Origin: Endomicrobiales bacterium
Lineage (GTDB): Bacteria > Elusimicrobiota > Endomicrobiia > Endomicrobiales > JALOBY01
Length of the DNA: 64,000 nucleotides
Direction: 5' to 3'
Assembly: GCA_963796955.1 (NCBI GenBank)
Contig: CAWCNJ010000004.1
Location: 96,001-160,000 of the forward strand
The notes beneath the pieces were generated by a model. The model did no database searches. It was not told where the DNA came from and saw only the letters and a program-made list of their open reading frames with translations. The stretch's first letter is position 1. Each line of letters starts with the position of its first letter. Made by a program: the position numbers and the translations under genes. Below, one piece after another: positions 4,105 through 64,000 of this stretch.

Positions 4105-4140
4105 CGTAATCCTCCTCGTGAATTTCATTTCGACGATACC

Positions 4141-13720: not shown

Positions 13721-13764
13721 ATCTATAGAATACAAATTTTTAATTATAGGATAATATATTGTCT
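13709..13764 (+). promoter_or_regulatory. Two putative HipB-type operator boxes, GGATAATATAwTrTCT
   Basis: ggataatataatatct (13709-13724) and ggataatatattgtct (13749-13764): 14/16 identical, 40 bp apart, imperfect palindromes overlapping the -10 element and the start codon. Confidence 0.55.
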
Positions 13765-14079
13765 TCTATTCCTGATCTAGATGATTTCAGTGTGGGTAAA
13801 CTTTCTGCGGGAATCAGCGCAAGGGTAAAGGCCCGTCGTCTGGAACTGAACCTGACTCAATCTGCCCTTTCAAAAAGATCCGGTGTAAGCCTTGGGACGC
13901 TTAAACATTTTGAAAGATACGCAAAAATATCGTTGCAACACCTGCTTATGCTCGCCATCGCAATGCAGGCCGCCCAGGAATTCAAGAAGCTTTTTTCAAC
14001 CAAACTTTATCTGAGTATCGACGATGTGATCAAAAACAACAAACCAACCAAGCGGCAAAGGGGAAGGCTTAATGTTTAA
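13759..14079 (+). CDS. HipB-like XRE-family HTH antitoxin
   Basis: RVKARRLELNLTQSALSKRSGVSLGTLKHFE; overlaps the hipA start. Confidence 0.88.
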   Translation: MSSIPDLDDFSVGKLSAGISARVKARRLELNLTQSALSKRSGVSLGTLKHFERYAKISLQHLLMLAIAMQAAQEFKKLFSTKLYLSIDDVIKNNKPTKRQRGRLNV

Positions 14080-16502: not shown

Positions 16503-16526
16503 AGACAAGAAGCTTAATAAAATTTC

Positions 16527-16628
16527 TTGACAGGCAATTACGAGGGTTTCGGAGTTGGTTTCGGTATAAACCTGTGCAATATCAAAATAGATTATGCCTT
16601 CGTCCCTTACGGCGTGAAAACCCATTGA
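16527..16628 (+). pseudogene. Remnant of the C-terminal strands of a PorV-family barrel gene
   Basis: Reads LTGNYEGFGVGFGINLCNIKIDYAFVPYGVKTH*; 12/23 ungapped identities to GLSTGFGVHVWDIQLDYAFVPMG of the 3172..4104 gene. Confidence 0.7.
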
Positions 16629-16661
16629 AAAATAAGGCAAAATTTTTATAACACAAAATTG

Positions 16662-16690
16662 TTGACAAAATTGGGATTGTCTGTTATATT
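16662..16690 (+). promoter_or_regulatory. Sigma70 promoter of the riboswitch/giant-gene operon
   Basis: TTGACA (16662-16667) - 17 nt - TATATT (16685-16690) with TGn extended -10. Confidence 0.8.
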
Positions 16691-16732
16691 TCTAGTGCAC
16701 CAGAAAAACTTGTTTTAGAAAAAAGCCATACC

Positions 16733-16900
16733 ATACCCGAAAAAGGCAAACCCGGTGAAAGCCGGGGACGCAAAGCCGCCCGGAAAACTTACCGGGCATC
16801 ACGCGACGGGTCGCGTGGTACGGGCCTTCAACGACGTATCTTCGGACTCCGGTCTCCGGACTCCGGACTGTCGTAAAGGTGGCCGGGTTGCCGAAGGTAA
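16733..16900 (+). promoter_or_regulatory. c-di-GMP-I (GEMM) riboswitch, atypical with internal hairpin insertions
   Basis: AAAGGCAAA-CCCGGT-GAAA-GCCGGG-GACGCAAAGCC...ACGGGCCT...AAGGTGGCCGGGTTGCCGAAGG matches GEMM-I hallmarks; closing stem TACC/GGTA; lies between the promoter and the first ATG. Confidence 0.85.
16843..16870 (+). repeat. Heptamer tandem repeat (CGGACTC)x4 in the riboswitch distal loop
   Basis: cggactc cggtctc cggactc cggactg. Confidence 0.8.
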
Positions 16901-16904
16901 CCTA

Positions 16905-17405
16905 ATGAAGCTAAAACTATTATTCCCATGTTTTATCACCGTTATGCTAAGCTGTACGGCATGGTGCGCGGCGGCAGGGGGAACTGCCCGCCAGACCGGC
17001 GTTTTTTTGCCATCAATTGATATCCAGTCGTCGCAAGAAGATCTGGACGTTCGCGATAGCAATAATAATATTATAGCCTCAATACAGGCGCAACAAGACC
17101 TGAGAGACATATTCCTCTCCGGTCTTTTTTCTTTATTAAGTCAACCTGAGTTATATACTTACGCGCGCGCCTGCGAAGTTTTGGCTAAAAGGCTGGGATT
17201 TGGGGCGCATGCCCTTGCGGCCGCGGCTGCCGGAGCTGTAACCCGCTCGGTTGATGCACTTCTTTCAGGCCGCACCGAAAAAAATATCGTTGCCTGCTTC
17301 TTGGTCGTATTTCTCGCGATAGTGGTCGTTTCTGCTTTCCGCATTCCTGCCCCAATGCTTTCGCTGCCGCTGGTGGCGATGGCACCCGTTTCATTGCGCT
17401 GTTAA
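16905..17405 (+). CDS. Hypothetical exported/membrane protein (166 aa), first gene after the riboswitch
   Basis: ATG 16905 follows AAGGT; signal peptide MKLKLLFPCFITVMLSCTAWCA; C-terminal TM IVACFLVVFLAIVVVSAF; ends VSLRC. The ORF-track start at 16755 lies inside the riboswitch. Confidence 0.65.
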   Translation: MKLKLLFPCFITVMLSCTAWCAAAGGTARQTGVFLPSIDIQSSQEDLDVRDSNNNIIASIQAQQDLRDIFLSGLFSLLSQPELYTYARACEVLAKRLGFGAHALAAAAAGAVTRSVDALLSGRTEKNIVACFLVVFLAIVVVSAFRIPAPMLSLPLVAMAPVSLRC

Positions 17406-17461
17406 CCAATGGCCCAGGCCGTCCATAGAGGGCGGCCCCCGATGCGATCCTTGCAGTTTCG

Positions 17462-18235
17462 ATGTATGGGCTTACGGGGACATGTGCAATGACAAACCCA
17501 ATTGTTGTTGAAAAATCAATCAAAAGATTTATGAGCGCTTGCCGCTCTTTGTGGGCTGTTGTTACCCGCCAAGCAGGGCTGGTTTTTTTTCACGCGCGCG
17601 AGAACCTTAATAAGGGCGCAATTATTGCCTGCCTTGGGGTAGTTGTGTTGTTTGGCCAGTGCTATGCAGCCGATAGCGTTGACCAAACGGCACAAAAACT
17701 TGCAAGCGCAGACCGCAAAGTTATGTTCGCGGCGATAAATTCGCTTGCGGCTCTTAACCAGGCCGATGCCGATCTGCAGCTGAAGAATTTTTATTCCACA
17801 GTCAGTGAAAACTACGTGAAAATGCAGGTTTTGCAGGCGGTGGCGGCAAATAACAGCCCTTCCGCAAGGGCGATAATCCGCCTTGGTTTGAAGGATGCCA
17901 ACGAGTATGTGCGCAAGGCCGCCGTGCAGGCATTATCCTTTGCTCCCGATGAGAAAGAGGCTGTTAAAGCCCTGACGGACACCCTGAACACCGAAAAGAA
18001 CGATTCGGTGAGAGGCCACGCGCTTACGGCCCTTTCAAATTTTAGTTCCACGTCGGCAGTAGCCGCGATAAGCACCGAATTAGGCGACAAAACAAGAGGC
18101 AAAGAACACCGCCTGCGCGCCGCGCAGTCCCTGCGCCGCATCGGCGGCAAACAGGCAAAAGCCGCTCTGGATAAAGCTAAGAACGACCCGCAGATATCGA
18201 AAGAAATTGACGCCATGAACAAGGCCGGCAAATGA
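17462..18235 (+). CDS. Exported HEAT/PBS-lyase-like repeat protein (start uncertain)
   Basis: Hydrophobic segment ending QCYA-A; repeats LKDANEYVRKAAVQAL, EKNDSVRGHALTAL, RLRAAQSLRRIGG; stop overlaps the giant-gene ATG (ATGA). Confidence 0.8.
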   Translation: MYGLTGTCAMTNPIVVEKSIKRFMSACRSLWAVVTRQAGLVFFHARENLNKGAIIACLGVVVLFGQCYAADSVDQTAQKLASADRKVMFAAINSLAALNQADADLQLKNFYSTVSENYVKMQVLQAVAANNSPSARAIIRLGLKDANEYVRKAAVQALSFAPDEKEAVKALTDTLNTEKNDSVRGHALTALSNFSSTSAVAAISTELGDKTRGKEHRLRAAQSLRRIGGKQAKAALDKAKNDPQISKEIDAMNKAGK

Positions 18236-21200
18236 ACTTATTGGGCCGCAATAAACCATTTTCCATAATAGTTTCGTTAAGCGCCTTGATGGGTGTGGTG
18301 CTTTGTCTCGCTTTTGACGTTAAAACAGCTAATGCTGCGGCCACATACAACACGGAAGGCACACTTTTATACGGCGGCGGTGATGTGCGCCCTTCATATC
18401 GCAATTGGAACGGCTCTGGCTGGGACGTAGAGCAAAAAGCACCGGCTTACGCCGACAGCACTGTCAACGAAAAAGGTGTGGTGACCTTTACGGTGGTCAA
18501 GGATGCCCCTGCGTGGATGGCAAATATAGATCCGACGCGTGTCGGTGAAAAAGTGATGATCACTGAAGACTCTATGTGCCGTCTGGTTGCACAGGTCTGG
18601 GATCCAGTTGCTCTTAAGTGGGGCGACAGTAAGGTGTTGTTGGGCCAGGGAGTTACCAACCCAGGCATGGACAATACAGGCCGCAACAACCTCGCTGCCG
18701 GCCAATATAGGTTCTTCGATGTGGCATATTCATCTGGCATCGTTGTGGTGGTTGCTGCCCACCCGCAGAACACTTCAAATACCAATAATCTATTGTACTG
18801 GACCTACGATGGGAATACGTGGGACACAACTGGGACTTCTTTGGGGTCTGCGGCTTCTAATACCATCCGTTGGGTACGCATGGAGACCAACCCTCTATTC
18901 AGCAATTGTACGAACATGGCCCTGGTTACCTTGGATGCCGGAAGGAACTATACGGGTCGTGTAGGGTACGACTCCAAAGCAGATGTTTGGGCGGCTACTG
19001 ACAACTTTGGCGCTGCAGTGTGCACGAACAACTGGTCAAACTACTTCAGCGTGTATGATATCGCTTTTGATTCATCCGGCGTAATGCGCGCGTTCTTTAA
19101 CAATAATGCCACTGGAGTTGTGCAGCGCTATTGGAACCCAGTCAATCGCACGTGGAATGCCGGTACTGGCTGGGCAATAGCCAATACACCCTATTCTATC
19201 CAGGCAGTACCACAGCCCAATGGCATGAAAATGGGCATAATGGTTTGGCAAAATGCCACAAACATGTCTTATTCGATATGGAATGGCGTTTCTTATTTAA
19301 ATCCTGCTGACCCATATGATGCAACAGCAAATAACGTTTCCAACCAGGTTTGGACCAACCATGGATGTTCCGGCGACTGGACGTGTAACGCAAGTTCGTT
19401 TACCATTGCCTATCTTGGCCGCCCTGCTATTAATATGCAGCCGTTGCGTGTGGTAACATGGAACGGCGCCGGCTGGGATCCTGCTGCAGCCGGTAATCAG
19501 GTATCAACCGCAATTGACAACGACAGCACTGGATTTGATAACATAGTTGTGCGTTCGACGGATTCTGCCTGTAAGGGTTCCGCCGTGCAGATATTGCTTA
19601 CTTCGCGCGATCAGTTCCTCGGAAATGGCACGTCCAATAACCGCCGCGAAGCGCGGCTGTACAGCATGACGTATGATGCTAAAACGGCATCGTTCAGCAA
19701 CCAGCAGATACTTACGAGGGCCATAACCGCAGACAACTACCAGCCATTTACAGTTTCCCGCAGCAATGGAGCCCCTTCGATGCTGGTATATAATGAGTAT
19801 ACTTCACGCCCCAATGCGCGTAAATATAACGGTACCACCATTCTTACAGAGTCTAACCTGACCGAGCTTAACACCGGAGCTATTAAACATGTTGTAATAC
19901 GCTCTTCGCCAAAGCGCGATGAGAAAGTTGCAGCAATGATGGACATTGATGGTGTATTAACATTGCATGTATGGAATGGGAGCAGTTGGGGCAATGCGTA
20001 CAAGGTGCCATACGACTATAGCGGTGAAAACAGCAGTGACTATAATCATTTCAGGAACTTTGATGTCTCTTATGAAAGGTCAAGCGGCCGCGCTATAGTG
20101 GTATTTTCCGTTCCCGGAAGCAATAACCCGCGCTACATGATCTGGACTCCTAATGGTTCGGGCAGCGGATCGTGGAGCGATCCGACGGCTGATGTGCCGG
20201 GATCCAGCGGCGATGTGGGTTTTGGATTTGCCACGCCGGCTATCTGGGTGCGTAGTGACAGTAATCCCAATCCGAATTCTAGTGAATCAGTTTTCATTTT
20301 TGTCGATAAAAATAACGGTCCCGATCTATGGGCTGTGAACTGGAGCGGCGCTAACTTTGGCACTCCTATGAAATTGCAGACCACTATAGATCGTCTGAAT
20401 GGTACCTGGCCCAGTTGGCAGAATTTCGAGGTTAAATATGAAGCGCAATACCCATATCGTGCACTCGTCGCTTGGACGCGTAACGCCGCAAACCGCGACC
20501 AGATAAACTATGCATTATGGGAATCAACTCCGACAACGCCTATCTGGATATCGCCGAATTCTCCTACGGGCGGAACCCTGGGGCGCGATTGCGGCAGCGC
20601 CACTACCGACCGCATAGCAGGTATTCGCCTTGCCGCTGACCCCAGTTCAAACCGTATCGCCATCGGTGTCGCTGATTACACCAATCAGCGTCTCTATGTT
20701 GACTATTGGAATGGCAATACCAGCTCCTGGAACAACGCCGAAAATACAGATCTGTTCAGCTCCCTTGGCATTACGGCGTTATTGTACGATACACAGAGCA
20801 ATGCCGGTACCACTAAAACGCCATTTGATATCGCTTGGGAATCGGGCGGCAATCGTATTGTGGTATTGGCGGGTAATAGTGGTACCGGTGTTACTGTCAA
20901 TAACAACCTCATGTGGGCACATTGGGTTTCAGGTACCGGCTGGACGGTAGGCGCTCTCGCAAATTCCTGCGACCCTAAAGGCCAGGCGCACAATGTTCAC
21001 GCCTACCCGGATCCCTACTCTGATGATATTACGTGGGTCGTTGCCAACACCCGCGGCTACCTGTTGCATTATGACTGGGCTGGCACGCCTTTTGGTGGGG
21101 TAACTTTACCGGATTATTGGGCCAGCTCGATCAGTAATGCATATATGGATCCTACAGTTGCTACCCAGAATCAATTGTATAACGCTCGTTTTGAACCATT

Positions 21201-24200
21201 CAGTTTTGCGTATACACGCGACTTTCGCCCGCCTGTTTCGGCCTGTGTGCGCCCGGCTAACGGTCAGTATTACAACAATTCAAGTAATTCGCTTGCCACG
21301 ATATCCGGCACTGTTTCTGATGCCGCTGTATCTGCCTATAATACCAGCGGCATAAAAGCCGTGCAACTGCGCATTTTGCGCACTAACGATAATTATTACT
21401 GGAACGGTTCGACTTGGACGCAGACCGGCGCGCCGAATGTATGGTTCAATGCAACAACTTTTACCCAGAGCTCTTGGACATACACAGTGACTTACCCGAC
21501 GGCGACGTGGGCAGATTATAAAACGTATCAGATGAATTCCCAGGCGATGGATAAAGAATCTAACTGGGAAACGAATTATTCGACTGTTACTTTCTATTAC
21601 GACGTAATTAATCCGACCTCGACGGTATTGTCTCCGGGTAATAATTCGTATATTAATACAGCGCCGGTTATAACTGGTTCCGCTTCGGATAACTGGACGT
21701 CTCCAACAAGCATAGCCAAAGTTGAGATCGAACTTATCCAAAGCCCCTCTACTCCTTTGTACTGGAATCCGACTAAACTTGGCGGAGCAGGCTGGGACGG
21801 CGGGGTTAGCTCATTTTGGATATTGTGTTCATCAACCAATGGCGGGGTTAACCCGGACAGGGCTTGGGATACCTGGGCGTACGATACCGTAGCTGCCGGT
21901 GTTACCTGGCCCATAGCCGCTTACCAATTTGTATCCAAAGTTACCGATAAAGCGGGCAATGTTCAGGTGGTTTATTCGACGGCGAACGTTACTTATGACA
22001 CTACAAAGCCTTCTGTGGCGATAACGGCGCCGAGCCCGGCGGCCGAGACCTGGCTTACGACGCCTCCGACGATACAGGGCACGGCGACCGATAATTACAT
22101 GGTCAACGCGACGTCCGGCGTGGATATCAGCGTTATAGATATCACCGACCAATACTACCCCGTTGCTCTGACAACGGGCTCGGCGGTGGACGGTTACTAC
22201 TGGACGCAGCTGTCCGGCGGAAGCGCTTCGGTGAACTGGTCTTACGCGCTGCCGGTAAGCAGCTGGACCGCAAACCATATTTATCAGATAGTAGCGCGCA
22301 GCCGCGATGGCGCCGGCAATGTTTCAACGTCATATTCAACGGCTACGTATGTGTATGATACCTATGCCGGATTGCCGAATGAGAAGCCTGATTCTACAGT
22401 TACTTTCCCTTCAAGCGGAAGCTATATATGTAATATAACGAACATAACGGGAACAGCGGTTGATAATTCCAATGGTATTGTCCAGACGGTGAAGTATTTT
22501 ATCAAGGATATGACGTCCAATAACTGGTACAGCAACTCTTCGCATGCCTTTGATCAGAGCGCTGAGACACCCAACAGCACCGCGCTGACACCGCCGCAGG
22601 CCTACAGCGCCGGTTGGACTTCAAATTTCACCGATTCGAATATACTGCAGGCCGGTCGCACGTACCGGGTTTATGCCCGGGCTACCGACAAAGCGGGCAA
22701 TGTGGAGGTTGTTTATTCTACGAATCCCTTCGTCTGGGATAATACGCTGCCTACCTCTTCCATAAGTTCTCCAAAGAACGGCGGTGTTGTAGGCACGGGT
22801 GTTGTGGTCGCCACCGGCACGTATAGTGACACGGGTTCCGGTATCTGGGTTTCCAGCGGTGCAGTGAAAATATTCCTCTACGATAAGGGCGGGCAGCAAT
22901 GGTACTACAACGGACAATGGAGGGGTGTTGCGCCTGCAAGTTACGACGCGCTGGATAATGCCCAGATATGGCCTTCGTCGTGGACATATACTTTGCCGGT
23001 GCTTACGAACTATACTAACAACAATTATATAATCGCTTCCATCGCGGGCGACTCCGCCCTGGATCAATCGCGCCCGGGAATGCCGGGTAACTATCAAAAT
23101 GGTACTGTTGTCGGCACATCTTCTAATACTTTTACCTGCGATAATACTGCTCCATCATCTAATATAGTTGTCCCTGGTACGGCGTTCCGCGATCAGCTGA
23201 CCACCATTACCGGCACTGCGCAAGATAATCCCATTGCAGCAAATGTCGCACGGGTTGACCTGGAAATTTGCTATCCCAGCGCCGGGCCTACGCAGGTTTG
23301 GAACGGCACCGCATGGACGGCATACTCGACATCATTTAGCACGTATGTCAGCGTAGCGGGCGGCAACCCAAACTGGACATATAATGTGCCGGCAAATATT
23401 AACTGGCTGGAAGGCGTGCAGTACCGTATTCGCAGCCGCGCGTTAGACACGGTCGGCAATCAGGAAGACCCGACGCTGAATACCACGCGCAATGTAATTT
23501 ATGACGTGTCTTTCCCTTCTTCAACAATTACGCTGATAAACAATGTTTCTACTGTAACTTACTACAACTCATTAACCACGTTGAGCGGTACTGCCGTGGA
23601 TCCACTGTCACCAACCTACGGCGGAATAAATGCGATAACTCTTTCAATTAAAAAAATTGATGCGCCCTTTCAAAATTATTGCTGGGACCCGGGTCTTACG
23701 GATTGGCGCACGGGGTATACCGACTACGGCGGCAACGGCCTTGCTATCAGCGCCGACCTTACGGCCGGCGGGTTTACCTGGAACAATGTTTCTAACGTTA
23801 CCTTCGCAACCGGCGGCGGAAAGTGGTCCGGCGGTGGTATGTTCGAGATCCGTACAGAAGCGGCCGACAGCGCTTTGCCTGGCAATAACGTGCCTCCAAA
23901 CGGCAACCGCGAAAAAGCCGGCGTCTACGCTAATTTGAACACAACAACGATCATTTACGACCCGGTTAACCCTGCCTCTCAGATAACCAACGCGCCGTTA
24001 AGCGGTTTTACCAGCAGTTATGCAAGTATCATCGGAACGGCATCGGATAACCGTGTTGTTGCGGGCGTAGGTGTTAGTATTTACGATGTAACAAACCAGA
24101 ATATCTGGAAGAATGGTACAGGCTGGGTTTCTCTTTTGCCAAATGCGCCGGTGCCGGCAGGCGCGCAATACTGGCAGGATGGAGGCTTTGCTGGTTATAG

Positions 24201-27200: not shown

Positions 27201-28839
27201 CTTGTCGGGTATATCCCAGGTCCTTGTAGAGCTGCGCCACAGCGGCTCTGTTATAAGGGCGTTCGGTCCGGCGACAAAGAGCGGCGTGAACGGTACTATA
27301 ACATGGTCAACCTCAACGGTAGGCGTGCCATGGGCAAGCGGCGACCAATATACCCTGACAAGCGAAGCTGTTGACCTTGCAGGTTCAACCCAAACGGTTC
27401 CAAACGCCGTAACCTTCACGATAGACGATCAGCCGCCTGTTGTAACGCTGGTGCAGCCTACCACCGGATATTCCTACTGGAATACATTGGCATTTATTTC
27501 AGGCACCGTAGATGACTCTATATCCGGCCAGATATCCTCGGTTACGATCTCAGTGCAAAACCTTGATACCAGTTTATACTGGGATCCCGTGGCCCGCCTC
27601 TTTAATGGCGGTTCAGCGGTATATTCCACTACTACCATATCAGGCGGCTGGTGGATCTATAATGATTGTGTCAGTAAGTTCGCCGATAATAACCGCTACC
27701 GCGCTACTATCGTTGCTTATGACGGCCCCGGTAATTCCGCAACAACAACCGCGGATTTCATTTACATTGATACAACACCGCCCGTGTCCCAACTCTCTTT
27801 CCCGGGCCCTGCGTCCGGCAATTTCTATCAGGGTGTTAACACTATAACAGGAACCGCCACCGACTTTGGCGCCAGCGCCTCGCGTGTTGATCTTGTCCGC
27901 GTGGAGATAACCGATTCTGACGGAGCGTATTGGAACCCTGACGGGAATTTCTGGGATAACTCATCAGGCGAAGTGCCGATCGATATTCCCATAAATCCGA
28001 CCGCCCTCTCGCGCCCTTTCACCTGGGATTCTTCACAGGTAAGCTGGCTGGACGGCAGCGATTATGTTGTAACCGTCAAGGCCGCCGACCGGGCCCTTAA
28101 GTCCACTAATGACTCTTACCAGCAGTTCCAGGTTATTGCTACGACCGTTGGGTTCACTATTGACACAACCTCTCCCACCGCTGTGATCTTATTGCCTGAG
28201 CTTGGCCGCGCCTACACGGTGTTAAGCTCTCTATCCGGTACGGCAAACGATGATACCGGCGGCGTGAAAACAGTTCATGTTATATTGAAAAACGTTACGC
28301 TGGGCCAATATTGGAAGGGGGGCTCAACCTGGGTAACCGATGTTAATGACCCGGGCATTCGGGTCGCGGCTGGCGGCACCACTTCATGGTCCATCGCCCC
28401 GCCTACGCTTACCAACAGGCATAGTTACATGGTCTGGGTAGAGGCTGATGATCACGCGGGCAACGAACTTCAGGTCTCTAACACGGACATTGGCGCCAAT
28501 GCCGGAGGCTCAGGTTTTACGTATGATAACCAGGCGCCGGACTCGGTAGTGAATGCGCCCGTTAGCGGCGCGAACCTTAACGCCCCAATTTCAGCGATCG
28601 CTGGAACGGTGATCGACTATACGAACGGCTCGGGTGTTTATGAAACACGCCTGAATATCCGCCGCACCAGCAATAACGGCGTTACCTGGCAGTATTGGAA
28701 CGGCGCCGACTGGCAGGGCGGCGATCCCAATTACCCTATGAGCATTGTGCCAACGGTCAATGACGGGGCTAACCAGCTTTACGACTGGACAAAAGCTTTT
28801 GGCGCCTGGAACGATAATTACCTTACCAGTTCTATGTGA
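18232..28839 (+). CDS. Giant protein segment 1: signal peptide, double beta-propeller-like head, class A Ig-like repeats
   Basis: 3535-aa ORF; WNGxxW and FDVxY head motifs to ~21220, then D.T.P.S...ISGTA.D...YWNG..W...RA.DxAGN repeats. Confidence 0.85.
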   Translation: MNLLGRNKPFSIIVSLSALMGVVLCLAFDVKTANAAATYNTEGTLLYGGGDVRPSYRNWNGSGWDVEQKAPAYADSTVNEKGVVTFTVVKDAPAWMANIDPTRVGEKVMITEDSMCRLVAQVWDPVALKWGDSKVLLGQGVTNPGMDNTGRNNLAAGQYRFFDVAYSSGIVVVVAAHPQNTSNTNNLLYWTYDGNTWDTTGTSLGSAASNTIRWVRMETNPLFSNCTNMALVTLDAGRNYTGRVGYDSKADVWAATDNFGAAVCTNNWSNYFSVYDIAFDSSGVMRAFFNNNATGVVQRYWNPVNRTWNAGTGWAIANTPYSIQAVPQPNGMKMGIMVWQNATNMSYSIWNGVSYLNPADPYDATANNVSNQVWTNHGCSGDWTCNASSFTIAYLGRPAINMQPLRVVTWNGAGWDPAAAGNQVSTAIDNDSTGFDNIVVRSTDSACKGSAVQILLTSRDQFLGNGTSNNRREARLYSMTYDAKTASFSNQQILTRAITADNYQPFTVSRSNGAPSMLVYNEYTSRPNARKYNGTTILTESNLTELNTGAIKHVVIRSSPKRDEKVAAMMDIDGVLTLHVWNGSSWGNAYKVPYDYSGENSSDYNHFRNFDVSYERSSGRAIVVFSVPGSNNPRYMIWTPNGSGSGSWSDPTADVPGSSGDVGFGFATPAIWVRSDSNPNPNSSESVFIFVDKNNGPDLWAVNWSGANFGTPMKLQTTIDRLNGTWPSWQNFEVKYEAQYPYRALVAWTRNAANRDQINYALWESTPTTPIWISPNSPTGGTLGRDCGSATTDRIAGIRLAADPSSNRIAIGVADYTNQRLYVDYWNGNTSSWNNAENTDLFSSLGITALLYDTQSNAGTTKTPFDIAWESGGNRIVVLAGNSGTGVTVNNNLMWAHWVSGTGWTVGALANSCDPKGQAHNVHAYPDPYSDDITWVVANTRGYLLHYDWAGTPFGGVTLPDYWASSISNAYMDPTVATQNQLYNARFEPFSFAYTRDFRPPVSACVRPANGQYYNNSSNSLATISGTVSDAAVSAYNTSGIKAVQLRILRTNDNYYWNGSTWTQTGAPNVWFNATTFTQSSWTYTVTYPTATWADYKTYQMNSQAMDKESNWETNYSTVTFYYDVINPTSTVLSPGNNSYINTAPVITGSASDNWTSPTSIAKVEIELIQSPSTPLYWNPTKLGGAGWDGGVSSFWILCSSTNGGVNPDRAWDTWAYDTVAAGVTWPIAAYQFVSKVTDKAGNVQVVYSTANVTYDTTKPSVAITAPSPAAETWLTTPPTIQGTATDNYMVNATSGVDISVIDITDQYYPVALTTGSAVDGYYWTQLSGGSASVNWSYALPVSSWTANHIYQIVARSRDGAGNVSTSYSTATYVYDTYAGLPNEKPDSTVTFPSSGSYICNITNITGTAVDNSNGIVQTVKYFIKDMTSNNWYSNSSHAFDQSAETPNSTALTPPQAYSAGWTSNFTDSNILQAGRTYRVYARATDKAGNVEVVYSTNPFVWDNTLPTSSISSPKNGGVVGTGVVVATGTYSDTGSGIWVSSGAVKIFLYDKGGQQWYYNGQWRGVAPASYDALDNAQIWPSSWTYTLPVLTNYTNNNYIIASIAGDSALDQSRPGMPGNYQNGTVVGTSSNTFTCDNTAPSSNIVVPGTAFRDQLTTITGTAQDNPIAANVARVDLEICYPSAGPTQVWNGTAWTAYSTSFSTYVSVAGGNPNWTYNVPANINWLEGVQYRIRSRALDTVGNQEDPTLNTTRNVIYDVSFPSSTITLINNVSTVTYYNSLTTLSGTAVDPLSPTYGGINAITLSIKKIDAPFQNYCWDPGLTDWRTGYTDYGGNGLAISADLTAGGFTWNNVSNVTFATGGGKWSGGGMFEIRTEAADSALPGNNVPPNGNREKAGVYANLNTTTIIYDPVNPASQITNAPLSGFTSSYASIIGTASDNRVVAGVGVSIYDVTNQNIWKNGTGWVSLLPNAPVPAGAQYWQDGGFAGYSSGTFSYSFAWANTIQYRIISRAYDKAGNYEAAFTTYTFTYQQYIGSPESPDSLVTSPTPNQNTNGMLASIAGTATASVRNQLAGVSLIITKLPNTSLGENTTYYWDKTAQNWSITFPASNNWTIASANDGTFNSNSEPWNWTPPQSGLAATNFWNSGHTYLVFSQAQDAALNYEVNCTTVSFVYELDLPTATITSPANNGYITQTGKVSGTCADMVPGTVADVQVRIKNFAGQYWNTSGPGWGASTWNSVVSSGTLSANATWWQFGATPWASADVYTIEARAVDKAGNYQVLYSTMSNVKADFVPPACVITQPTDGQSYTDLPVISGTVYDAFPGQPNHVYLQFRAHDIGTNNDSNQTIGGGGGVPLSATWDAVSNTWKPYTVPGTDYWIPVSSITIMPGFTGFATWYFDNSIAVNGCNAIWGAAGNQKWIDVVAYADDAAGNTPAIPGVLTDGTDFKYGVPAPVTAIVTPGYNNPYLETNIAYASINGTKTQYATSVLVSIKNEHTGYYWLGSSFSASGVTPFWLSAVTPTQTSWNYPISGAAWVDGSSYTVTSRGVGTGGDVINPQSNTFLFDTTNPNSAVVLPATNLYYNSMTNINGTAVDGNPASGMKGDINTVQVAIRTYNSPYYFWNVVQSSWQYNINPTPDPVNYDTTTFNSGTGIWSINISSQIWIDGKRYRVFVQSQDMAGNNQTVPAFNDFYFDASSPAATISTLSSNGVYSSLASITGTATDPAGVGGNAGILGTVDLQIIWNGTIPQYWNGATNSWSGSNTTWSTATVSVANIASSSWTLTNLPIAAQWTHNATYTVISRAKDQSLPSPNAQGNFGVPTSSMNFVWDNLPPVTSITSPSEGAKLNLPGGTLVMQGLASDTPAGLSIGSIKLQLAYLQGSDTYYWDGTSAWFKNDPSKEFSPSLYGYPNWQYSMAAAILSTDHAYFVRIRASDNAVPPNPTAYPSSANTSYVNFIYDNTPPSSQVGFPVDGNYYRSASLASLTGTANGDLSGISQVLVELRHSGSVIRAFGPATKSGVNGTITWSTSTVGVPWASGDQYTLTSEAVDLAGSTQTVPNAVTFTIDDQPPVVTLVQPTTGYSYWNTLAFISGTVDDSISGQISSVTISVQNLDTSLYWDPVARLFNGGSAVYSTTTISGGWWIYNDCVSKFADNNRYRATIVAYDGPGNSATTTADFIYIDTTPPVSQLSFPGPASGNFYQGVNTITGTATDFGASASRVDLVRVEITDSDGAYWNPDGNFWDNSSGEVPIDIPINPTALSRPFTWDSSQVSWLDGSDYVVTVKAADRALKSTNDSYQQFQVIATTVGFTIDTTSPTAVILLPELGRAYTVLSSLSGTANDDTGGVKTVHVILKNVTLGQYWKGGSTWVTDVNDPGIRVAAGGTTSWSIAPPTLTNRHSYMVWVEADDHAGNELQVSNTDIGANAGGSGFTYDNQAPDSVVNAPVSGANLNAPISAIAGTVIDYTNGSGVYETRLNIRRTSNNGVTWQYWNGADWQGGDPNYPMSIVPTVNDGANQLYDWTKAFGAWNDNYLTSSM

Positions 28840-34800: not shown

Positions 34801-37800
34801 GCATCTCCTGCCCCGAACGGTATCTATAATGCGTCTCTCACCGCGATCACCGGTACCGCGCTGGATCCGTTCGCGCCGAACAACATCGGCATGTCACTGG
34901 GCAACCGCGTGAAATTGGTCATTAAGGATACGGACGATAACACGTACTGGAACGGTTCAGCCTGGTCGGTGAGCGTTTCAACGGTATACGCTACCAATGA
35001 TTCCGGCGACTGGACCGCTTGGCATTACCCGATCGCCTCCTGGATAAGCGACCGCAACTACACTGTTCAAGCCTGGGCGATAGATGACCTGGATAACGAA
35101 CAAACGGTTCCCGCGGGCTTCAGTATGGTCGTTGATACAACGCCGCCGGTAAGCTCGATAGATTATCCTGCTAATAACCAGATATTCAATTCCCTGCCGA
35201 CCCTTTCGGGTTCGGCGAACGCACAGCTTTCGGGCCTGTCCGGGCTTGACGTGCGCATCAGCTCCTGGACGGGCGCCGGCTGGTCCGTGCTGCCGGCTTA
35301 CAATTTTGTTCCTGCGACTATCTATCAGACCAGCTGGACCTTTACTGGTATAGCGGGCCTGGTAAGCGGCGTTACGTATCAGGCCGTAGCCCGTGCAAAA
35401 GACAATGCCGGTAACTATGATGTTAAGTTGTCTACGGTCAGTTTTGTATTTTTCACCGGCGCACCCACGGTCGTTATCGGCCAGCCCCTGTCCGGCGCTT
35501 TCTATGGGCCGGCGTACACCGTGCCGCTCAGCTCCGGTACCGCGACAGATCCTTTCGGCGTCAACCGGGTTGAGATAAGCATTTCACGCAATGATGGTAA
35601 GTATTGGAACCGTCCCAACAGCTGGGTAGTCCAGAGCAGCTGGCAGGTAACATCCGGCACGCTGCTGTGGTCTATCGCCAATCCCGCGTTCGAAGACGGC
35701 TACGTATACACCTTGTCAGCGCAGGCCACCAACACCGCGGGCAATACCTCGATCCCGGTCACTAAAACATTTACCTATGATAGTAATGTGCCAACGGTCT
35801 CCCTGCAAACACCTTCAACCTCGTACTATCATTCATTACCGAATATTTCAGGGACGGCTGCAGACCCTGCGGGCACCATTGGTACGAACCGTTCCGGACT
35901 TGGGCATGTGGATGTCGCGATACAGAACGACCCCGACTTCAACGGTAAATTCTGGAACCCGATCACGCATAGCTGGAACCTGGATACGCTGGGAACAGCC
36001 TGGTTCAATGCTACCGGCGATCTTGCGGGTCTTCCTTCATCTTCATGGAGCGTGCCTGCCGCTTCCACCCCGACCTGGGTAAGCAACCAGAAGTATAACG
36101 TGTCCATACGCTCAGTCGACCAAAGCGGCAACGCTTCCACCGTTATCAGCCAGGCTTTTGTGTATGATACTGATGCCCCGCTGGTTGCCATCTCGCTGCC
36201 AAGCCTGAGCTACTATAATAATCTGCCGACCATTACCGGTTCGGCCTCCGATGCCAATGATAAGGGCGGCGTCACCAATGTCCAGGTACGCATAAAGAAC
36301 TACACATTCACAAAATACTGGAACAATGTAAGCCAGGCTTTCGACATAGATGATACTGATGTCGCGCGTGAATCTTCGTGGTATACGCCGACAAACCAAT
36401 CGGGTACCTGGTCGGTATGGACGGCAACGTTCACCTGGGCCAGCGGATTTAAATATCAAATAGAGGCGCGAGCGCAGGATAATTCCGGCAATTACAGTGT
36501 GGTGTATGCCACGGCGAACTTCCGCTACGATACGCAGGCGCCAACGGCGGCGTTGGGCTTCTCCGGCTCAGGGTAGTTTTGTTCTCTCAATACCGGGCAA
36601 CGCCTTTACGGGAACCGCGCAGGACGTTCCCGCAGTCGCTGTCGGCAACAGCTACGGCGGCGCAGGGGTCTCTCAGATCGAATTCGCGATGCAGAATAAG
36701 TTAACGGGCAAGTGGTGGAACGGCGTTGATTTCAGCGCTTCCGGGGCACAGGCGTTCACCCGGCGCCATTCCCGGCGAGCCGATAGCCTGGAACTTTGCG
36801 GCCATGTCACTGACCAGCGGTGCCAGCTACTATATCACTCTGCGAACTCATGATAATGCCACCAATGTTCAGGACTTTATGGTAAATGGCGGCACGTTCA
36901 CTTTTGACACACGCCGCGGTATCAACTATTACGCTTGTTGGTGCTTCGTTCAGTTCACTTAACACTATTTCCGGAACGGCGGTAGATTATCCTGGTAATG
37001 CGGGCGGCCAGGCCGCCGGTGTAGGCTCGGTCGGGCTCTCGGTTTTGCGAGTAAGCGACGGCTACTACTGGACGGGCACCGCTGATCTGTGGGCATCTGC
37101 CACGTACTACGCCACCATGTCCGGCACCAATAACTGGCAAAGCGTAACGCTGCCGCCCTGGGCCAGCGGTGAGAAATACCGACTCCAGAGCAAGAGCTGG
37201 GATAACGCCCTGCCTGCGCCCGGTAACGACGAACAGATACTGTGCACCCGCTATTTTGTGTTCGATTCCAGCGCGCCGAGCATTGCGGTAAGCGGCCCGG
37301 TGAACGGGAAGATCTACAGCACACTGAGCACCATAACCGGCTCGGCGCAGGAATATCCGCTGGCTAACAATTCGGGGCTTAACAGAATAGACCTGAACCT
37401 GGCGGATAATACGAACGGTATGTGCTGGACAGGTTCAAGCTGGACGGTAACAGCGCAGTGGAACAGCATACCTCTCAGCGGCTCGGCGGCAAATTGGCAA
37501 TACAACTCTCTCGGCAGCGCCTTTACCAGCGGCCATACGTATACCGCCACCCTGCGCGCCTATGACACGCTCGGCAATACCCTGGCCCAGCCGACGGTAG
37601 TGAATTTTACCTTCGACAATACGCCGCCGGTTTCATTCGTGACCATCCCGGCCGAGAACATAGGCTACAATTCAACTACGCAGGTGCTCTCCACTGTATC
37701 GGGAACCGCGATGGATGTTACCGCGGGTGTAACATCGGTGAATGTATCCATCAAGGTCAATGATTACCCATCATTCGGCAATTATCGCTGGTGGAATGCA

Positions 37801-55800: not shown

Positions 55801-58800
55801 CTACCATGTTAATACCGGACCCGTATCGCGCCTGCAGGTGCTGGTGCCCGGCGAGACAAGCCTGCCCGGCTCGGCTTCCGGCAAACAGGGCACGGTTGCC
55901 GTTCAGACAGCCGGTATTCCTTTCAATGTAACGGTTAATGCCACCGACCTGTTCTGGAATATCAAGCTTGACCATAACGATGCTGTCGGCGCGCGGCTGG
56001 ATACGACCGATCCCTGGGACATAAATCCCTCAACTCAGCCGCTGACGAACGGTACCACAATATTCGCCGTAACGCTGGTCACACGCGGCGCGGCCCATAA
56101 ACTGTATGCGGTGGACGCCGGCGCTTACGCCCTTGAAAAAGATACCTCGAGCATTATTACCGTTATCCCTAAGATAGATCAGCTGGCAGAACTGAAGCTG
56201 CAACTTGTCGTGCCGGGTGAGACGGCAGTTGAAGGCAAATGGAACAACGGCGTTAACCCCGTTCCTTACGGCAAGAGCGGTCTTCCCTCAGTTGAGACCG
56301 CTGGTGTTAACTTCACCGTGACCGTCAACATGGTCGATAAATTCTGGAACGTGATCAACAGCGGCGTAGCCATGCAGTATGTACAGTTGATGAACGTTAA
56401 CAAATGCGATCCTTTCGCCGTCTATCCGGGCAGCACGTCGCTGACCAACCGGTACCACCACGTTCATGGTGCAACTGCGGACCAGCGGTTATGGCGCTAA
56501 TCCTTCCAGCTGGACCATTACGGCCCGTGATGTTGACCCCTCTTTGCCGAACCTTACGGATTCCGTTTCGCCTGATGTCGTTGTTCAGCCGAACACCCCC
56601 AAAAACTGGTTCGTGGTCGTGCCCGGCGAAACCTGGGTTCCCGGAAAAACCTCCGGCCTTGCCGGTAAGACGGATATTTCCCTGCCGTCAAATCAGACTG
56701 CCGGCACATCCTTTAATACCACGGTTTACCTGGTTGACGATTATTTCAACGCCGCCAACCTCGGTCCGGCCATGGGTGCTGTTACCGACGATCCAAACGA
56801 TATAGACCCCGGCAGCCAGCTGCTGATCGGCGGTGTAGCCACGGTCCCCGCGACGTTGGTCACCGCATCCACCAGCGGCTGGACCATAACCGCTTCGGGC
56901 GGCGCGTACACCGGCTTTACCACTCCGAAGATCATTGTCGGCCCCGCCGGCCCAAGCCGTATACTTGCACTGCTGCCGGGCGAGCAGTACCTTGCAGGCT
57001 CCGTCACGGGTAAGACGGCAGCGTTGCCCTCGGCGCAGATCGCCGGCACGCCGTTCGTCGTTACCGCGATGATAACCGACAACCGCTGGAACCTGGTCTC
57101 CTCAACATCCTCGCGCCTGGGCTGTTGGACCGAGGACCCGTATGATGTGGAGCCCGCCAGCGCCTCTACAACGAACGGACAGCTGACATTCACGGTGGAG
57201 TTCCACCGCGGCGTGGGGGAAACCTACCGTATACGGGTCTCCACTGACGACGGGAACCTCTTAAGCGCCTACACCACGCCGGCTATCGCATCGAATTTGG
57301 CGCCGCGACAAAATTGCAGCTGCTGGTGCCGGGTGAAACCGCACTGGACGGCTCAAACCTTGGGAAGTCGGGCACGCCTTCATCCTGGACCGCCGATACC
57401 GCCTATACGCTTACCGTGCGCGTGGTGGACAAATACTGGAACCTGAACTCACTGGTGAACACCACGTTTGTAACGTCGTCCAACAATACATTCTATACAC
57501 CGGTCAACGATACCACCAGCAGCGGCAACAAGCTGTTCAATACGTCCTTGCCCACGATCTCACCGACGGGTTGGACCATAACGGTTTCAACAGCGGCCGG
57601 TTCTTCGAACAGTTATCTCACCGGCAACACATCGCCCAATATCCCGGTTACCGCCGGCGCACCGCGGCAGCTGCTGGTCGTGCTGCCGGGAGAATCCCCG
57701 CAGGCGGGCTCCGGCACCGGTAAGCGGCACGCCGGATCTTCAGACTGCCGGTGCGGGTTTTGCGGTCTCGGTCTATGCGACCGACAGTAAGTGGAACCAA
57801 TCAACATCAACTCAGACTATTCGTATTACGACCGATGACCCGTATGATATCGAACCTGTGAGCCAGCAGCTTTCGGGCGGCTACGCCGTGTTCGTTTCAA
57901 CGCTGGTCACGGGCAATGCCGGTTCCATGAACTCCGCGAACCGCGTTACGACCATAACAGCCTCGGACATTACCGGCAGCGGCTCAACGTTAACTGCCGG
58001 TCTCGCACAGGTTACGGTGCAGCCTGATAACGCTCATGCGTCTACACTGCAATTACTGTTGCCGGGTGAATTACATGTCCCCGGGAAACCTCCCTATCAA
58101 GTGCCGTTCGGAGGACGATCAGGTGTTCCACAACAATTAACAGCTGGAACGACATATTCCGTTACAGTAAACGCCTGCGATACGTATTGGAACATCAGTC
58201 CGATTCAGATGCCTTTGATAGAAATGGACAATACCGATGTATATAATGTGCCAGTCTACCGTACCCTTGCCAATGGAACTAATGTATTCCCTGTGTACAT
58301 GCGGCGCGCAACATTGTATCAGGAAGGGCTGATCAATTCAGCAACGATCACGATTGTTCATTCCGCGATCCCGCAGCTATATTCTGCAGCGATGAGCACA
58401 TTTTCCGTCGTTCCAGAAGCGTCTGGGAAGAACTTTATTATTTTGGTGCCTGGGCAGACGCACCTGCCGGGTACAATTACCGGCACAAACGGCGGCGCAA
58501 CTAATCAAACAGCGGGCATACCGTTCCGCGTAACGGTTGATTGTGTAGACAGTTTCAACAATATTGTGCCCACGGCTAACCCGCTTGTTACTATGACATC
58601 GAGCGATCCCAATGATGGCGTTGGCGCCGAAACCGGCATAGGCTGGGATCCTGTCTCTCAATCGCTCTTTGTGGGCTGTACATATTTCATGGTGAACCTT
58701 GTCACTGCTAACACAAGCCATATACTTACTGCCGCGCAAACAGATGGTAAAATACCGTACTACGGCATAACAAATTCTCTCCCGGTCTACGTAAATCCCG

Positions 58801-61800
58801 GCGCCCCAGCAAATTACAGGTGTTGTTGCCGGGAGAAAGTGGTCTGCCAAATACTACCGTTGGTAAGACCGGGACGCCGCTTGCACAGGTTGCCGGTACT
58901 CAGTTCTTCGTTACCGTCAACGTTACGGATATCCTCTGGAACGTGAACAATTCAGTCGGCCCCATGGTAAGTGTTCGCACCAGCGATCAGTATGATGTTG
59001 AACCCGGCACCGCATCCCTGACTGCCGGAACAGGACCATTCCTGGTAACATTGCCGACAGCTTCAACCTCACATTTGATATTTGCTTATGATACCAGCAA
59101 TACATACTCTACAGGTACTGCCACCATGTTCCAGGTCTCACCGGCGCCTGCAGCTAGGTTGCACATCGTGCTGCCCGGCGAAACCTATACGCCAGGCAAA
59201 CCTCCATATGACGGCACGGGTGGTAAGACAAATGCGCCTGTCACCCAGACTGCCGGCCAATCATTTACCCCCACAGTGTACTTAACCGATCTGTACTACA
59301 ATATCCGTTCAGGTGATGTAAGTAACACTGTATTTATTCATTCATCGGATCCTAATTTTAGCGCGCCTTCCGGACAGAGCATAAACAGCGGGCAGGTATC
59401 AATACCTGTAAGATTGGTTACTTATAATACGCAAACGGTCGGAGCAACTTATCAGGATTTATCTATAAGTTCGACGACGTCAACACCACTGTATGTGCAG
59501 CCAAATGCTCCTGCTAGAATGCAAATAGTAGCGCCCGGTGAAACTTCGCGTCCTGGCAAATGGAACAATGGTTCTAACATACAACCTTTTGGCAAGTCCG
59601 GGACGCCCAATCAGGTTACGGCGGGTAGTTCTTTCCAAGTAACAGTTACGGCCTGTGATAATTATTATAACCCTACAACCGCTCAACCAGATGCCACAGT
59701 TACTACCACAGATCCCTATGATGTAGAGCCGGCCACCCAGACCCTGCTGAACGGGTCAACGACTTTCACCATAACATTGGTAACGCAGCGCGTTACCATA
59801 GCTTCGGCGACCGCAAGCGGCTATACGCCTGACTATACGGGTAACATAACGGTTAACGCAGCCTCGGCCTCCGGATTGCAGATCATCCTGCCGGGCGAAA
59901 CGGCGGTACAGGGTAAGTGGAATGTTGAACCCGCGGGCAAGACCGGTGCCCCGGCTGCAGCGACGGCGGGCACTCCCTTTAGCGTGACGGTGCGGGCGAT
60001 AGACCCGCACTTCAATCTATGCAATATAAGCCAGACCATCGATCTGGAAAGCAACGACCCTAACGATGCCAACCATACCGGCGTCCCTCAGCAGAATAAT
60101 TTGTCCGGCGGATCGGCGACATACAACCGCATACTGCTGACGGCGAATACCAGCTGGATATTTACCGCCACAGACCGCGACCCGAGTTTGCCGTCCCTGA
60201 ACCCGGCGGTTTCCACACCGGTATGGGTGAATGCCGGCACGCCGTGGCGCATACTGGCACTGGTGCCGGGTGAAACGTATCTGCCGGGCAATACCGTAAG
60301 CCAGGGCGGCGGCAAGGGCGGCTCGCCGCTGCAGCAGACCGCGGGTGTGCCTTTTGTTACCACCGTTATCGCCTGCGATCTGAATTGGAATAATGTGCCC
60401 GGTGAAACGTCGGTCGTGGACCTTAGGTCGACGGATAATTTTGCGGATCTGCCGGCTGGCTATCAGGAACACGGTTTTGGCGCGGACGGCCGCACGACTT
60501 TCACGAACACTATCTACACCGCCAGCACGCAAACCTTCTACGCTTCAGGCGTCGGCGAGCCGGTGCTGAACCACGGCAACATACTTAACCCCTATACCAG
60601 CTCGGTCGTTACCGTGGTTTCTTCCGACGCCGTCAAGATGCAGGTGCTGCTGCCGGGTGAAACGTACGTGGCCGGCAAGCCGCCCTATAATCTCGGCGGA
60701 GGCGGCAAGGGCGGGGCGCCGACCCAGCGGGTAGCAGGCGTGCCGTTCAATGTCACTGCCAGAGAAGTGGACCCTTACTGGAATACCGTTACTTCTATTG
60801 TTTCACAGGTGCGTTGCGATACGGACGATCCCTACGATGTGCAACCCGCTATAGCGCCGTTGGCGGGCGGTCTGCGCATATTCCCTATCGATCTGGTCAC
60901 GGCATCAACCTGGACAATAACTGCCGTCGATACTGATGATGCCGCTATTGCCGTGAATGTTTCTTCGCCGGTCTACGTTGCGCCTAATAGTGCCGACCGC
61001 CTGCAGGTGCTGTTGCCGGGTGAAACCGCGGTAGCCGGAAAATTCGACGGCAAAACGGGATCGGCAACACCGCGTACCGCCGGAGTGCTTTTCGCGGCCC
61101 AGGTCAGACTGACAGATGCCTACTGGAACACTATTTACGCCGGCGCGATGCCCACAGTTTCCCTCGGTTCTACGGACGTCTATTGGAGTACCCCAACCGC
61201 GAAGACGCTGGTGGCGGGGGTGGTCAATTTCTCTGGTGTGTCCGGCCTGACGCTGGTCACTGCCACGACAACCACCATTTTTGCGGATGGCGGCGGTTAC
61301 ACCACCGGTGTTTCATCACCGGTACTGGTTATGCCTAATACCGCTACAAAAACGATCGTTGTCGTTCCCGGTGAAACACAGGTTAACGGAAAGAACGTGC
61401 CGCCTCTGGGCCGCAGCGGAACGCCCGCCACCGAGACGGCCGGGCAGATGTTCACCATAACGGTTTATGCGGTGGACGGTAATAATAACTTCGTCAATAC
61501 CGTGAATATAAATCCGGTGAACATCATAACATCCGATATTTACGACACCGATCCGGGTAATTTGAACATGGTTAACGGATTGATAACGACTAACGTAACC
61601 ATAAAGACGGCTAAAGCAACCGTTGTCTCGGCGCTTCCGGGCGGCGCACCTCTTGCTCAGGGCGATTCTTCCAGCATCCCGGTGGTAAGCGGTGTGGCCA
61701 GAAGGCTGCAAGTGTTGTTGCCCGGCGAAACCGCGGATCCCGGCTCAGTAAGCGGCAAGATCGGCTCTCCAGGCAACCAGGTTGCCGGTTACAGCTTCAA

Positions 61801-64000: not shown

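Follow-up and report, generated by a model that had tools for sequence, protein, structure and literature searches.

A predicted c-di-GMP-I riboswitch heads a conserved Elusimicrobiota locus encoding a small exported protein and a giant repeat surface protein

Introduction

The second messenger cyclic diguanylate (c-di-GMP) promotes attachment in general, and elsewhere motility genes are shut off by it. In the LapA/LapD/LapG system, the surface display of a giant repeat adhesin is tied to c-di-GMP by post-translational control and the protein is exported by type I secretion, and in Clostridioides difficile riboswitches stand directly before the genes of the adhesins, pili and flagella that they control. 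Very large repeat adhesins are also found among the type IX cargo of Bacteroidota (SprB/SprF), with a Sec signal, an immunoglobulin (Ig)-like sorting domain and a PorV/PorQ barrel nearby, and neither riboswitch control nor a small partner is among the features of that system. Here we describe a locus of Endomicrobiales bacterium (Elusimicrobiota; Endomicrobiia; Endomicrobiales; JALOBY01; assembly GCA_963796955.1) in which a predicted riboswitch of the c-di-GMP-I (GEMM-I) class precedes a gene for a 166-residue protein, a gene for an exported HEAT-repeat protein and a giant gene of about 17,900 codons. The window analyzed is the whole stretch of 64,000 nucleotides (nt) from positions 96,001 to 160,000, forward strand, of contig CAWCNJ010000004.1, in a genome (G000) that is 81% complete; open reading frames (ORFs) were read under table 11.

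Surface proteins under riboswitch control and cargo of a type-IX-like kind both belong to known types of system; new here are a small partner that is obligate, a regulated gene of this size and a module that recurs across the phylum. The locus shares with C. difficile the placement of the riboswitch directly before a surface-protein gene, and it departs from that monoderm organism, whose proteins are of ordinary size and anchored by sortase and where there is no small partner ending in Leu-Arg-Cys (LRC), no HEAT protein and no type-IX-like domain. The closest described riboswitch is Vc2, ahead of tfoY in Vibrio cholerae, which likewise belongs to the RF01051 class and lies in a 5' leader, and whose ligand-stabilized P1 helix represses translation, as stated in passages of PMC11705072. 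The ribosome-binding site of the present leader touches the aptamer and lies 9 nt from the ATG, whereas that of Vc2 is "distant" according to a title in the reference list of PMC11705072. Unlike Vc2, the present aptamer has a 97-nt insert in its P3 arm, holding a copy of a dispersed repeat, and regulation would fall on a small protein of a new family and on a surface protein of approximately 18,000 residues.

Proteins of at least 10,000 residues are frequent in Elusimicrobiota and poorly characterized, according to passages of two recent studies (bioRxiv 10.1101/2023.11.21.568195; PMC11573180). The word "riboswitch" occurs 0 times in the main texts of both, and those main-text passages mention no conserved small upstream partner. 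A search of the literature for Elusimicrobiota together with c-di-GMP riboswitches, or with type IX secretion, returned nothing relevant; the preliminary description of this DNA, made from the sequence alone, did not recognize the combination as a described system, and we likewise found no description of it in the literature searched. Giant genes are common in this phylum and annotated only as hypothetical, and the locus gives one such family a candidate sensor, a small partner and an export tag.

Results and discussion

We read the locus as an operon conserved in Elusimicrobiota and made up of a riboswitch, a small protein, in this lineage a HEAT protein, and a giant protein, in which the breaks of the giant gene are mostly assembly errors and the riboswitch is an OFF switch; as a whole this reading has, in our estimate, a probability of about 0.68. 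A sigma-70-type promoter would be followed by the c-di-GMP-I riboswitch, then by a small exported protein anchored in the membrane by its C terminus, a HEAT protein that would be periplasmic in this lineage, and a giant protein with a predicted Sec signal peptide, β-rich repeats and a type-IX-like sorting domain. The small and HEAT proteins may serve as periplasmic assembly or tethering factors; the preliminary description had proposed them as chaperone, anchor or export helpers. On binding of c-di-GMP, the ribosome-binding site would be masked and the small ORF switched off, and the loss of its translation would, by coupling or polarity, bring down expression of the HEAT and giant genes.

A profile built from 16 homologues found the small protein in 37 of the 401 genomes of the phylum that were scanned, with exactly one copy in each (a single-sequence search found it in 21 of 301). 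Loci of relatives were inspected for a giant frame in 32 regions (12 fetched first and 20 later) and for a riboswitch in 29 (12 and 17); the 20 later regions include five genomes outside the 17-locus riboswitch scan, and two short contigs of that scan had no giant-frame check. A giant frame stands just downstream of the small gene in 29 of the 32 regions, the other three are cut by contig ends, and there is no counter-example. Ten of the first 12 loci have such a frame and two are cut by contig ends: three encode intact orthologues of 17,343 (G006), 17,969 and 17,278 residues with the same C terminus as the gene of the window, six hold frames of at least 1,500 to 9,742 residues that continue until the contig or the fetched DNA stops or masked bases begin, and one has a giant gene fragmented like that of the window. 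Among the 20 later regions, 19 have a frame that is still open where the fetched DNA stops, after at least 1,426 to 6,643 residues, and the last offers 732 nt before its contig ends. In 19 of 29 loci (10/12 and 9/17) the small gene is immediately preceded, in the same orientation, by an aptamer of the c-di-GMP-I clan that reaches the gathering score. The other ten loci lack a gathering-level aptamer in that position, a point against our reading; in G232 one lies 1.1 kb upstream with weaker matches nearer to the gene, and in G089 none was found.

The HEAT gene is less constant. It stands between the small and giant genes in 8 of the first 12 loci, and at least 7 of the 20 later regions have no room for it, since fewer than 200 nt separate the small gene from the opening of the giant frame. 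The HEAT gene is thus optional, and the conserved core comes down to riboswitch, small protein and giant protein. The expectation of the preliminary description that homologues of both proteins would accompany giant genes therefore stands for the 166-residue protein, and for its riboswitch in 19 of 29 loci, and does not stand for the HEAT protein as a constant partner. In three relatives (G009, L025 9848-17117; G013, L029; G089, L032) a cassette separates the small and giant genes; it encodes two radical S-adenosylmethionine enzymes, one or both of them B12-binding, an LPG_synthase_TM protein and two PMT_2/TPR glycosyltransferases, and a variant in G012 (L031) has UbiA-family and DUF4350 proteins instead. 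This inserted cassette may modify the giant protein or the envelope. Extra small ORFs also occur between the small and HEAT genes (L025 18139-18579, L030 1131-1433, L031 18415-18759 and L027 4372-4662); that of G009 belongs to the 23S_rRNA_IVP family, and those of G007, G012 and G005 encode 96-114 residues, with no Pfam match for G007 and G012.

Twelve of the 15 loci whose giant C-terminal domain has at least 52% identity are filed as Elusimicrobia, Endomicrobia or Endomicrobiales. Three contigs of 2.8-9.2 kb (L107, L110 and L119), with 52-78% identity in this domain, are filed as Omnitrophota, Ignavibacteria and Sumerlaeota, a placement that is probably due to mis-binning.

The preliminary description had placed a GEMM-I riboswitch behind a promoter at the head of the operon, and both elements were recovered, as a promoter matching 11 of 12 positions and an aptamer of 48.5 bits against an Rfam gathering cut-off (c-di-GMP-I, RF01051) of 35 bits (Table 1). 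The same aptamer was seen again in a whole-genome search, at 42.7 bits. Its Rfam alignment includes the P2 hairpin with a GNRA tetraloop (GAAA), retains the consensus letters in the GGCAAAC, GACGCAAAG and UGCCGAA stretches, and holds 97 inserted nt in the P3 arm in place of 25 consensus positions. We regard the c-di-GMP-I riboswitch of this locus as real, its binding of the ligand being a prediction, and the genome encodes six GGDEF domains, so that the signal can be made in the host. Nucleotides G20, A47 and C92 (Vc2 numbering) contact the ligand in the parent class. The aptamer of the window scores best as the parent c-di-GMP-I family; orthologous leaders score best as the GGC variant (L030 473-565, L031 19356-19449, L079 1374-1459 and L053 752-842) or the UAU variant (L082 2151-2229), and ligand specificity may therefore differ among orthologues.

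The hairpin repeat of about 30-37 nt lodged in the P3 insert (query positions 62-98) has 16 further copies in the genome at 87-96% identity. Examples are C4:174641-174675, C2:15554-15654 and C7:3948-3984, and one copy lies just past a downstream tandem riboswitch. That tandem consists of two further c-di-GMP-I aptamers, 6.3 kb past the giant stop in the whole-genome search. A riboswitch follows the giant stop by 0.1-2.3 kb in only 5 of the 15 loci carrying the giant C-terminal domain, so that this neighborhood is only partly conserved.

The layout of the leader bears on the direction of the switch. The aptamer would act on translation initiation of the small ORF, its ligand-stabilized P1 helix holding the GG of the Shine-Dalgarno sequence in the 3' strand GGUA. 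The proposed strands are UACC at the 5' edge of the aptamer and GGUA by the ribosome-binding site; these flanks bracket the aptamer in the window and in most close relatives, where the 3' GGUA lies within ...CCGAAGGUA..., they are replaced by AACC and GGUU in the leader of one relative, and other flanks, complementary over as many as 8 pairs, occur in leaders that are more distant. The ATG of the small ORF lies 9 nt past the end of the aptamer in the window, and in 16 of 20 leaders this distance is 3-11 nt. Because the 3' end of the aptamer and the P1 strand overlap the ribosome-binding site, the OFF direction is favored, and the riboswitch probably exerts a translational control that c-di-GMP switches off, a direction deduced from the arrangement of the leader. 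In Vc2, formation of P1 with bound ligand represses translation (passages of PMC11705072). If the OFF direction is true, the giant protein would belong to a low-c-di-GMP program and would not be a biofilm adhesin.

Several points weigh against this direction. In the same passages (PMC11705072), an ON switch is reported for Vc1, which is closely related to Vc2. Unconstrained folding, with the aptamer fold not imposed, pairs the Shine-Dalgarno GG in nearly all leaders, and for this reason the sequence does not decide between ON and OFF. Complementarity of the P1 flanks was not significant when the duplex energies of matched flanks were compared with permuted ones, 485 of 2000 permutations being as good, and the compensatory changes in P1 are individual cases noted by eye.

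The contrary arrangement, in which the same operon is switched on by c-di-GMP so that the small protein and a giant adhesin are made for attachment, was the one put forward in the preliminary description; the layout of the leader now argues for repression, and we hold the ON switch to be possible yet doubtful. It agrees with the general role of c-di-GMP in attachment, and in 6 of 11 leaders unconstrained folds contain a local hairpin, formed between GGUAACC and the P3 3' strand, that hides the Shine-Dalgarno sequence and that the ligand could melt. This hairpin, however, is not kept in every leader, the bound state still pairs the Shine-Dalgarno GG in P1, and the compact aptamer of most leaders ends too near the AUG, at the 3-11 nt given above, to sit easily with activation. 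Class I aptamers of both directions exist, according to passages of PMC11705072, a point in favor of the ON switch.

Table 1. Coordinates of the features of the locus, in window positions unless marked C4
Feature	Position	Strand	Description
Sigma-70-like promoter	16662-16690	+	TTGACA-17-TATATT, TG before -10; 11/12 positions; best site in 16300-19000
c-di-GMP-I (GEMM-I) aptamer	16735-16895	+	Rfam match, 48.5 bits vs cut-off 35, E 2e-6, model 1-87; ligand binding predicted
Copy of dispersed hairpin repeat, ~35 nt	16839-16875	+	Inside the P3 insert of the aptamer
Ribosome-binding region	16896-16907	+	GAAGG Shine-Dalgarno at 16893-16897, straddling the aptamer 3' end; ATG at 16905
166-residue small protein	16905-17405	+	Signal peptide, DLDARD motif, amphipathic helices, C-terminal hydrophobic segment, LRC terminus
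Exported HEAT-repeat protein	17462-18235 (alternative start 17489)	+	HEAT_2, 6e-17
Giant repeat surface-protein gene	18232-64000, on to C4:167995	+	~53.8 kb, ~17,900 codons, 13 open segments
Extra base in the assembly	56449	+	X1 contig over 56374-56600, depth 5.1, without one base

The giant gene is present in the assembly as 13 open segments separated by 12 junctions, 11 of them within the window. Two are breaks at stop codons, an in-frame TGA at 28837 and a TAG at 36574 where the reading makes an excursion into another frame; frame changes lie near 36.87, 44.37, 52.23, 55.08, 56.45, 57.25, 57.71, 58.81 and 62.71 kb, and the twelfth junction lies beyond the window, near window-equivalent 70.1 kb. 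By reading, a signal peptide is found only in the first segment, in its first 30-35 codons, and the junctions run through recognizable repeat units or domains. In a tblastn comparison of the 17,343-residue ORF of G006 with the region, the segments are colinear with 36-63% identity, no junction shows a deletion, and their end points abut in G006 coordinates (10788/10787, 11736/11734, 12183/12184, 14267/14266 and 16715/16715), so that the segments are pieces of one gene of about 17,900 codons. The preliminary description had announced a giant gene for more than 15,000 residues; one gene of that order is supported by the colinearity with G006 and by the base at 56449 discussed below, and a single ORF is not, given the 13 segments. 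Fragmented giant genes of some assemblies can thus be read through their colinearity with intact orthologues.

Most of the 12 breaks are, with good confidence, errors of the assembly consensus and not gene decay. Run X1 was the sole public DNA run used (short-read contigs; 6% of sampled words), and it gave eight short pieces at 99% identity or more that covered one junction. There, a contig without one base indicates that base 56449 is extra, and its deletion restores a continuous reading of the repeat domain and abolishes the frame change at 56.45 kb. The junctions also sit in short GC-rich repeats such as GGCGGCGGC, which fits consensus errors. Against assembly error it must be said that this read support comes from a single contig at depth 5.1 and 1 of 12 junctions, that all 12 genes of the upstream 16.5 kb are intact so that the breaks are concentrated in the giant gene, and that the giant orthologue of G003 consists of more than 40 separate open frames beside flanking and downstream genes that look intact. 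That orthologue (G003:C4 ~258,000-319,000; L026 and L050-L052) is fragmented in a pattern like that of the window copy, more severely.

On account of this concentration and of the G003 orthologue, decay or strain variation is possible at the 11 junctions without reads, and the giant gene might truly be a pseudogene, or phase-variable, in this organism and yield no full-length protein. The giant gene, moreover, is poorer in long homopolymers than the genome as a whole, and simple homopolymer miscalls therefore fail to explain the excess of 12 breaks in 53.8 kb over none in the upstream genes. We nevertheless consider a true pseudogene unlikely, since the independent contig lacks the extra base at the only junction it covers, the colinearity with G006 is unbroken, and three other assemblies have intact ORFs of 17,000-18,000 residues. 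Two further explanations were rejected: stop-codon reassignment, because TGA, TAG and TAA all occur among the stops and because the frame changes at 10 of the 12 junctions, and a nonribosomal peptide synthetase or polyketide synthase cluster for the row of ORFs of 2,500-3,500 residues, because only Ig-like domains were matched.

We infer that the leader and the small, HEAT and giant genes are co-transcribed. The preliminary description had noted that they are co-directional with no U-tailed terminator, and our scan agrees: no convincing + strand terminator was found in 16900-18300, the only candidates being weak, of 5-6 pairs and all in coding sequence. It had also reported an exported HEAT protein whose gene overlaps the giant gene, and this is borne out by a match to HEAT_2 (PF13646) of 62.1 bits against a cut-off of 27.7, by a signal peptide or signal anchor seen on reading, and by an ATGA overlap of the HEAT stop and the giant start at 18232-18235; the HEAT orthologues align end to end and score 36-115 bits. 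The gap of 57-84 nt between the small ORF and the HEAT start, and weak promoter-like sites at 17489 and 17850 (9/12 matches), speak against a single operon. They would suit a riboswitch that governs the small ORF alone, with the HEAT and giant genes served by a promoter of their own, as would the up to 9 kb of other genes that lie between the small and giant genes in some relatives. The uniform direction of the genes, the lack of a convincing terminator between them, the short spacing of small gene and giant frame, no more than 200 nt in seven or more loci, and the conservation of the linkage across the phylum all make separate control of the giant gene improbable. No RNA run is among the listed public runs that hold sequence of this genome.

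Pfam matches along the giant protein, in the window segments and in the intact G006 orthologue, are weak and Ig-like only; searches of Protein Data Bank sequences with two giant-gene segments gave no meaningful relatives, and the relatives of the giant protein are named hypothetical proteins in their sources. Five orthologues share 57-83% identity over the final 130 residues of the protein. Searched as a profile, this tail matches the domain at the C terminus of PorU (6za2, residues 1055-1151) with an E value of 1.5e-6, its AlphaFold model is a β-sandwich with a predicted local distance difference test (pLDDT) score of 87, and Foldseek retrieves PorU (template modeling score 0.58), PorZ, the Ig-like domains of FlgD and generic Ig-like domains. 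By profile and model, the giant protein thus ends in a type-IX-like C-terminal sorting domain. The tail has no match to TIGR04183 (Por_Secre_tail) at E≤0.01, and a downstream protein of 190 residues with a similar tail reaches 22.2, the cut-off being 23. The gene at C4:168879-169811 encodes a barrel of the PorV/PorQ family (NF033709, 151.6 bits against 90), PorV-family matches in the genome number 29, and export of the giant protein may follow a PorV-linked route. A promoter-like site at L036 8282-8310 (C4:168282-168310; TTGACT-17-TATAAT, 11/12) lies between the giant stop and the genes of the 190-residue and PorV proteins, which may therefore be transcribed separately. Downstream of the giant gene there is also a GT-C/TPR glycosyltransferase gene, related to the PMT_2/TPR genes of the cassette found in relatives.

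The likeness to Bacteroidota type IX cargo lies in the Sec signal, the Ig-like sorting domain, the nearby PorV/PorQ barrel and the very large repeat adhesin, and the differences lie in the machinery. In this 81%-complete genome the PorU core (NF033707) was matched only by C-terminal-domain regions, at no more than 33.9 bits against 420, GldM (GldM_1st) had no match, and SprA_N was matched weakly, at 21.8 bits (29.4 summed), in an ORF of 1,828 residues. With neither PorU core nor GldM found at that completeness, the route of export departs from canonical type IX secretion, which weighs against the secretion part of our reading; the locus displays a type-IX-like export tag in a phylum where searches of the genome examined recovered neither the motor nor the sortase usual in type IX secretion. 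The likeness to LapA is that of a giant repeat adhesin tied to c-di-GMP, and the two differ in that no RTX or type I secretion C-terminus was matched here, only Ig-like Pfam families in the window segments and the G006 orthologue; neighboring transporter genes were not searched for.

A bolder picture would make the giant protein the adhesin of an undescribed envelope machine and a functional analogue of the gliding adhesin SprB, its export and retention falling to PorV-like barrels, and moved or tensioned by a neighboring riboswitch-gated operon for a FliF-FliG/stator-like "rotor", with the small protein as an inner-membrane tether or export-monitoring leader and both operons turned off by c-di-GMP; we consider it speculative and rather improbable. 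As a separate observation, a second pair of surface protein and barrel lies at window 3172-8867 on the - strand, with a PorV barrel at 3172-4128 (Pfam PorV 4.7e-10; NF033709 193.6 bits) beside a CarboxypepD_reg/fn3 protein of 994 residues (4141-7125) and a protein of 581 residues (7122-8867) that has no Pfam match.

The first gene of the operon had been described as encoding a 166-residue protein with a signal peptide and a transmembrane segment after the riboswitch, and the ORF 9 nt past the aptamer has both an N-terminal signal peptide and a C-terminal hydrophobic segment on reading. It has no Pfam or NCBIfam match, and judged by its sequence it is a new, undescribed family. Run against a library of 1.84 billion proteins, the profile retrieved 258 cluster representatives at E≤0.001; among the best 149 family members, 112 end in RC, mostly as (V/I/P/N)LRC, and 137 have the D.RD motif. 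The last three residues are the most conserved part, the penultimate arginine (R165) being invariant in 16 of 16 sequences. An AlphaFold model from 16 sequences has three helices and a C-terminal hydrophobic helix, at a pLDDT of 58.7 and a predicted template modeling score (pTM) of 0.24; this model is too poor to support a search by fold, and a search of the ESM Atlas gave nothing usable. Prediction of a complex between residues 26-126 of the small protein and residues 61-248 of the HEAT protein, with alignments, gave no support for binding (score 0.00, mark 0.32), a result that counts neither for nor against an interaction.

Its single copy, its constant place ahead of the giant gene and its invariant penultimate arginine suggest that the protein has a dedicated assembly or tethering role or, less likely, that it is a stalling leader, and it may be a dedicated assembly or tethering factor of the inner membrane. 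Stalling would resemble that of the arrest peptides SecM, VemP, MifM and TnaC, which the family recalls by its conserved C-terminal LRC and its gene position. A mainly regulatory leader whose LRC-stop end stalls the ribosome at termination and so governs transcription or translation of the giant gene, a role for which the signal peptide, the SecM- and VemP-like size and position ahead of an exported protein and the conserved C terminus would all be apt, is very unlikely, because the mature N terminus and the central amphipathic helices are conserved as well, which suggests a folded and functional protein, and because a hydrophobic segment directly precedes the tail.

Elsewhere in the window, a gene for a HipB-like helix-turn-helix protein and a gene for a HipA kinase lie at 13759-15175 on the + strand (HTH_3, Couple_hipA and HipA_C), a pair of the toxin-antitoxin type. 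Positions 1-2000, with an AAA_12/DUF2726 gene, have a GC content of 0.37 against approximately 0.51 for the contig and may be foreign DNA.

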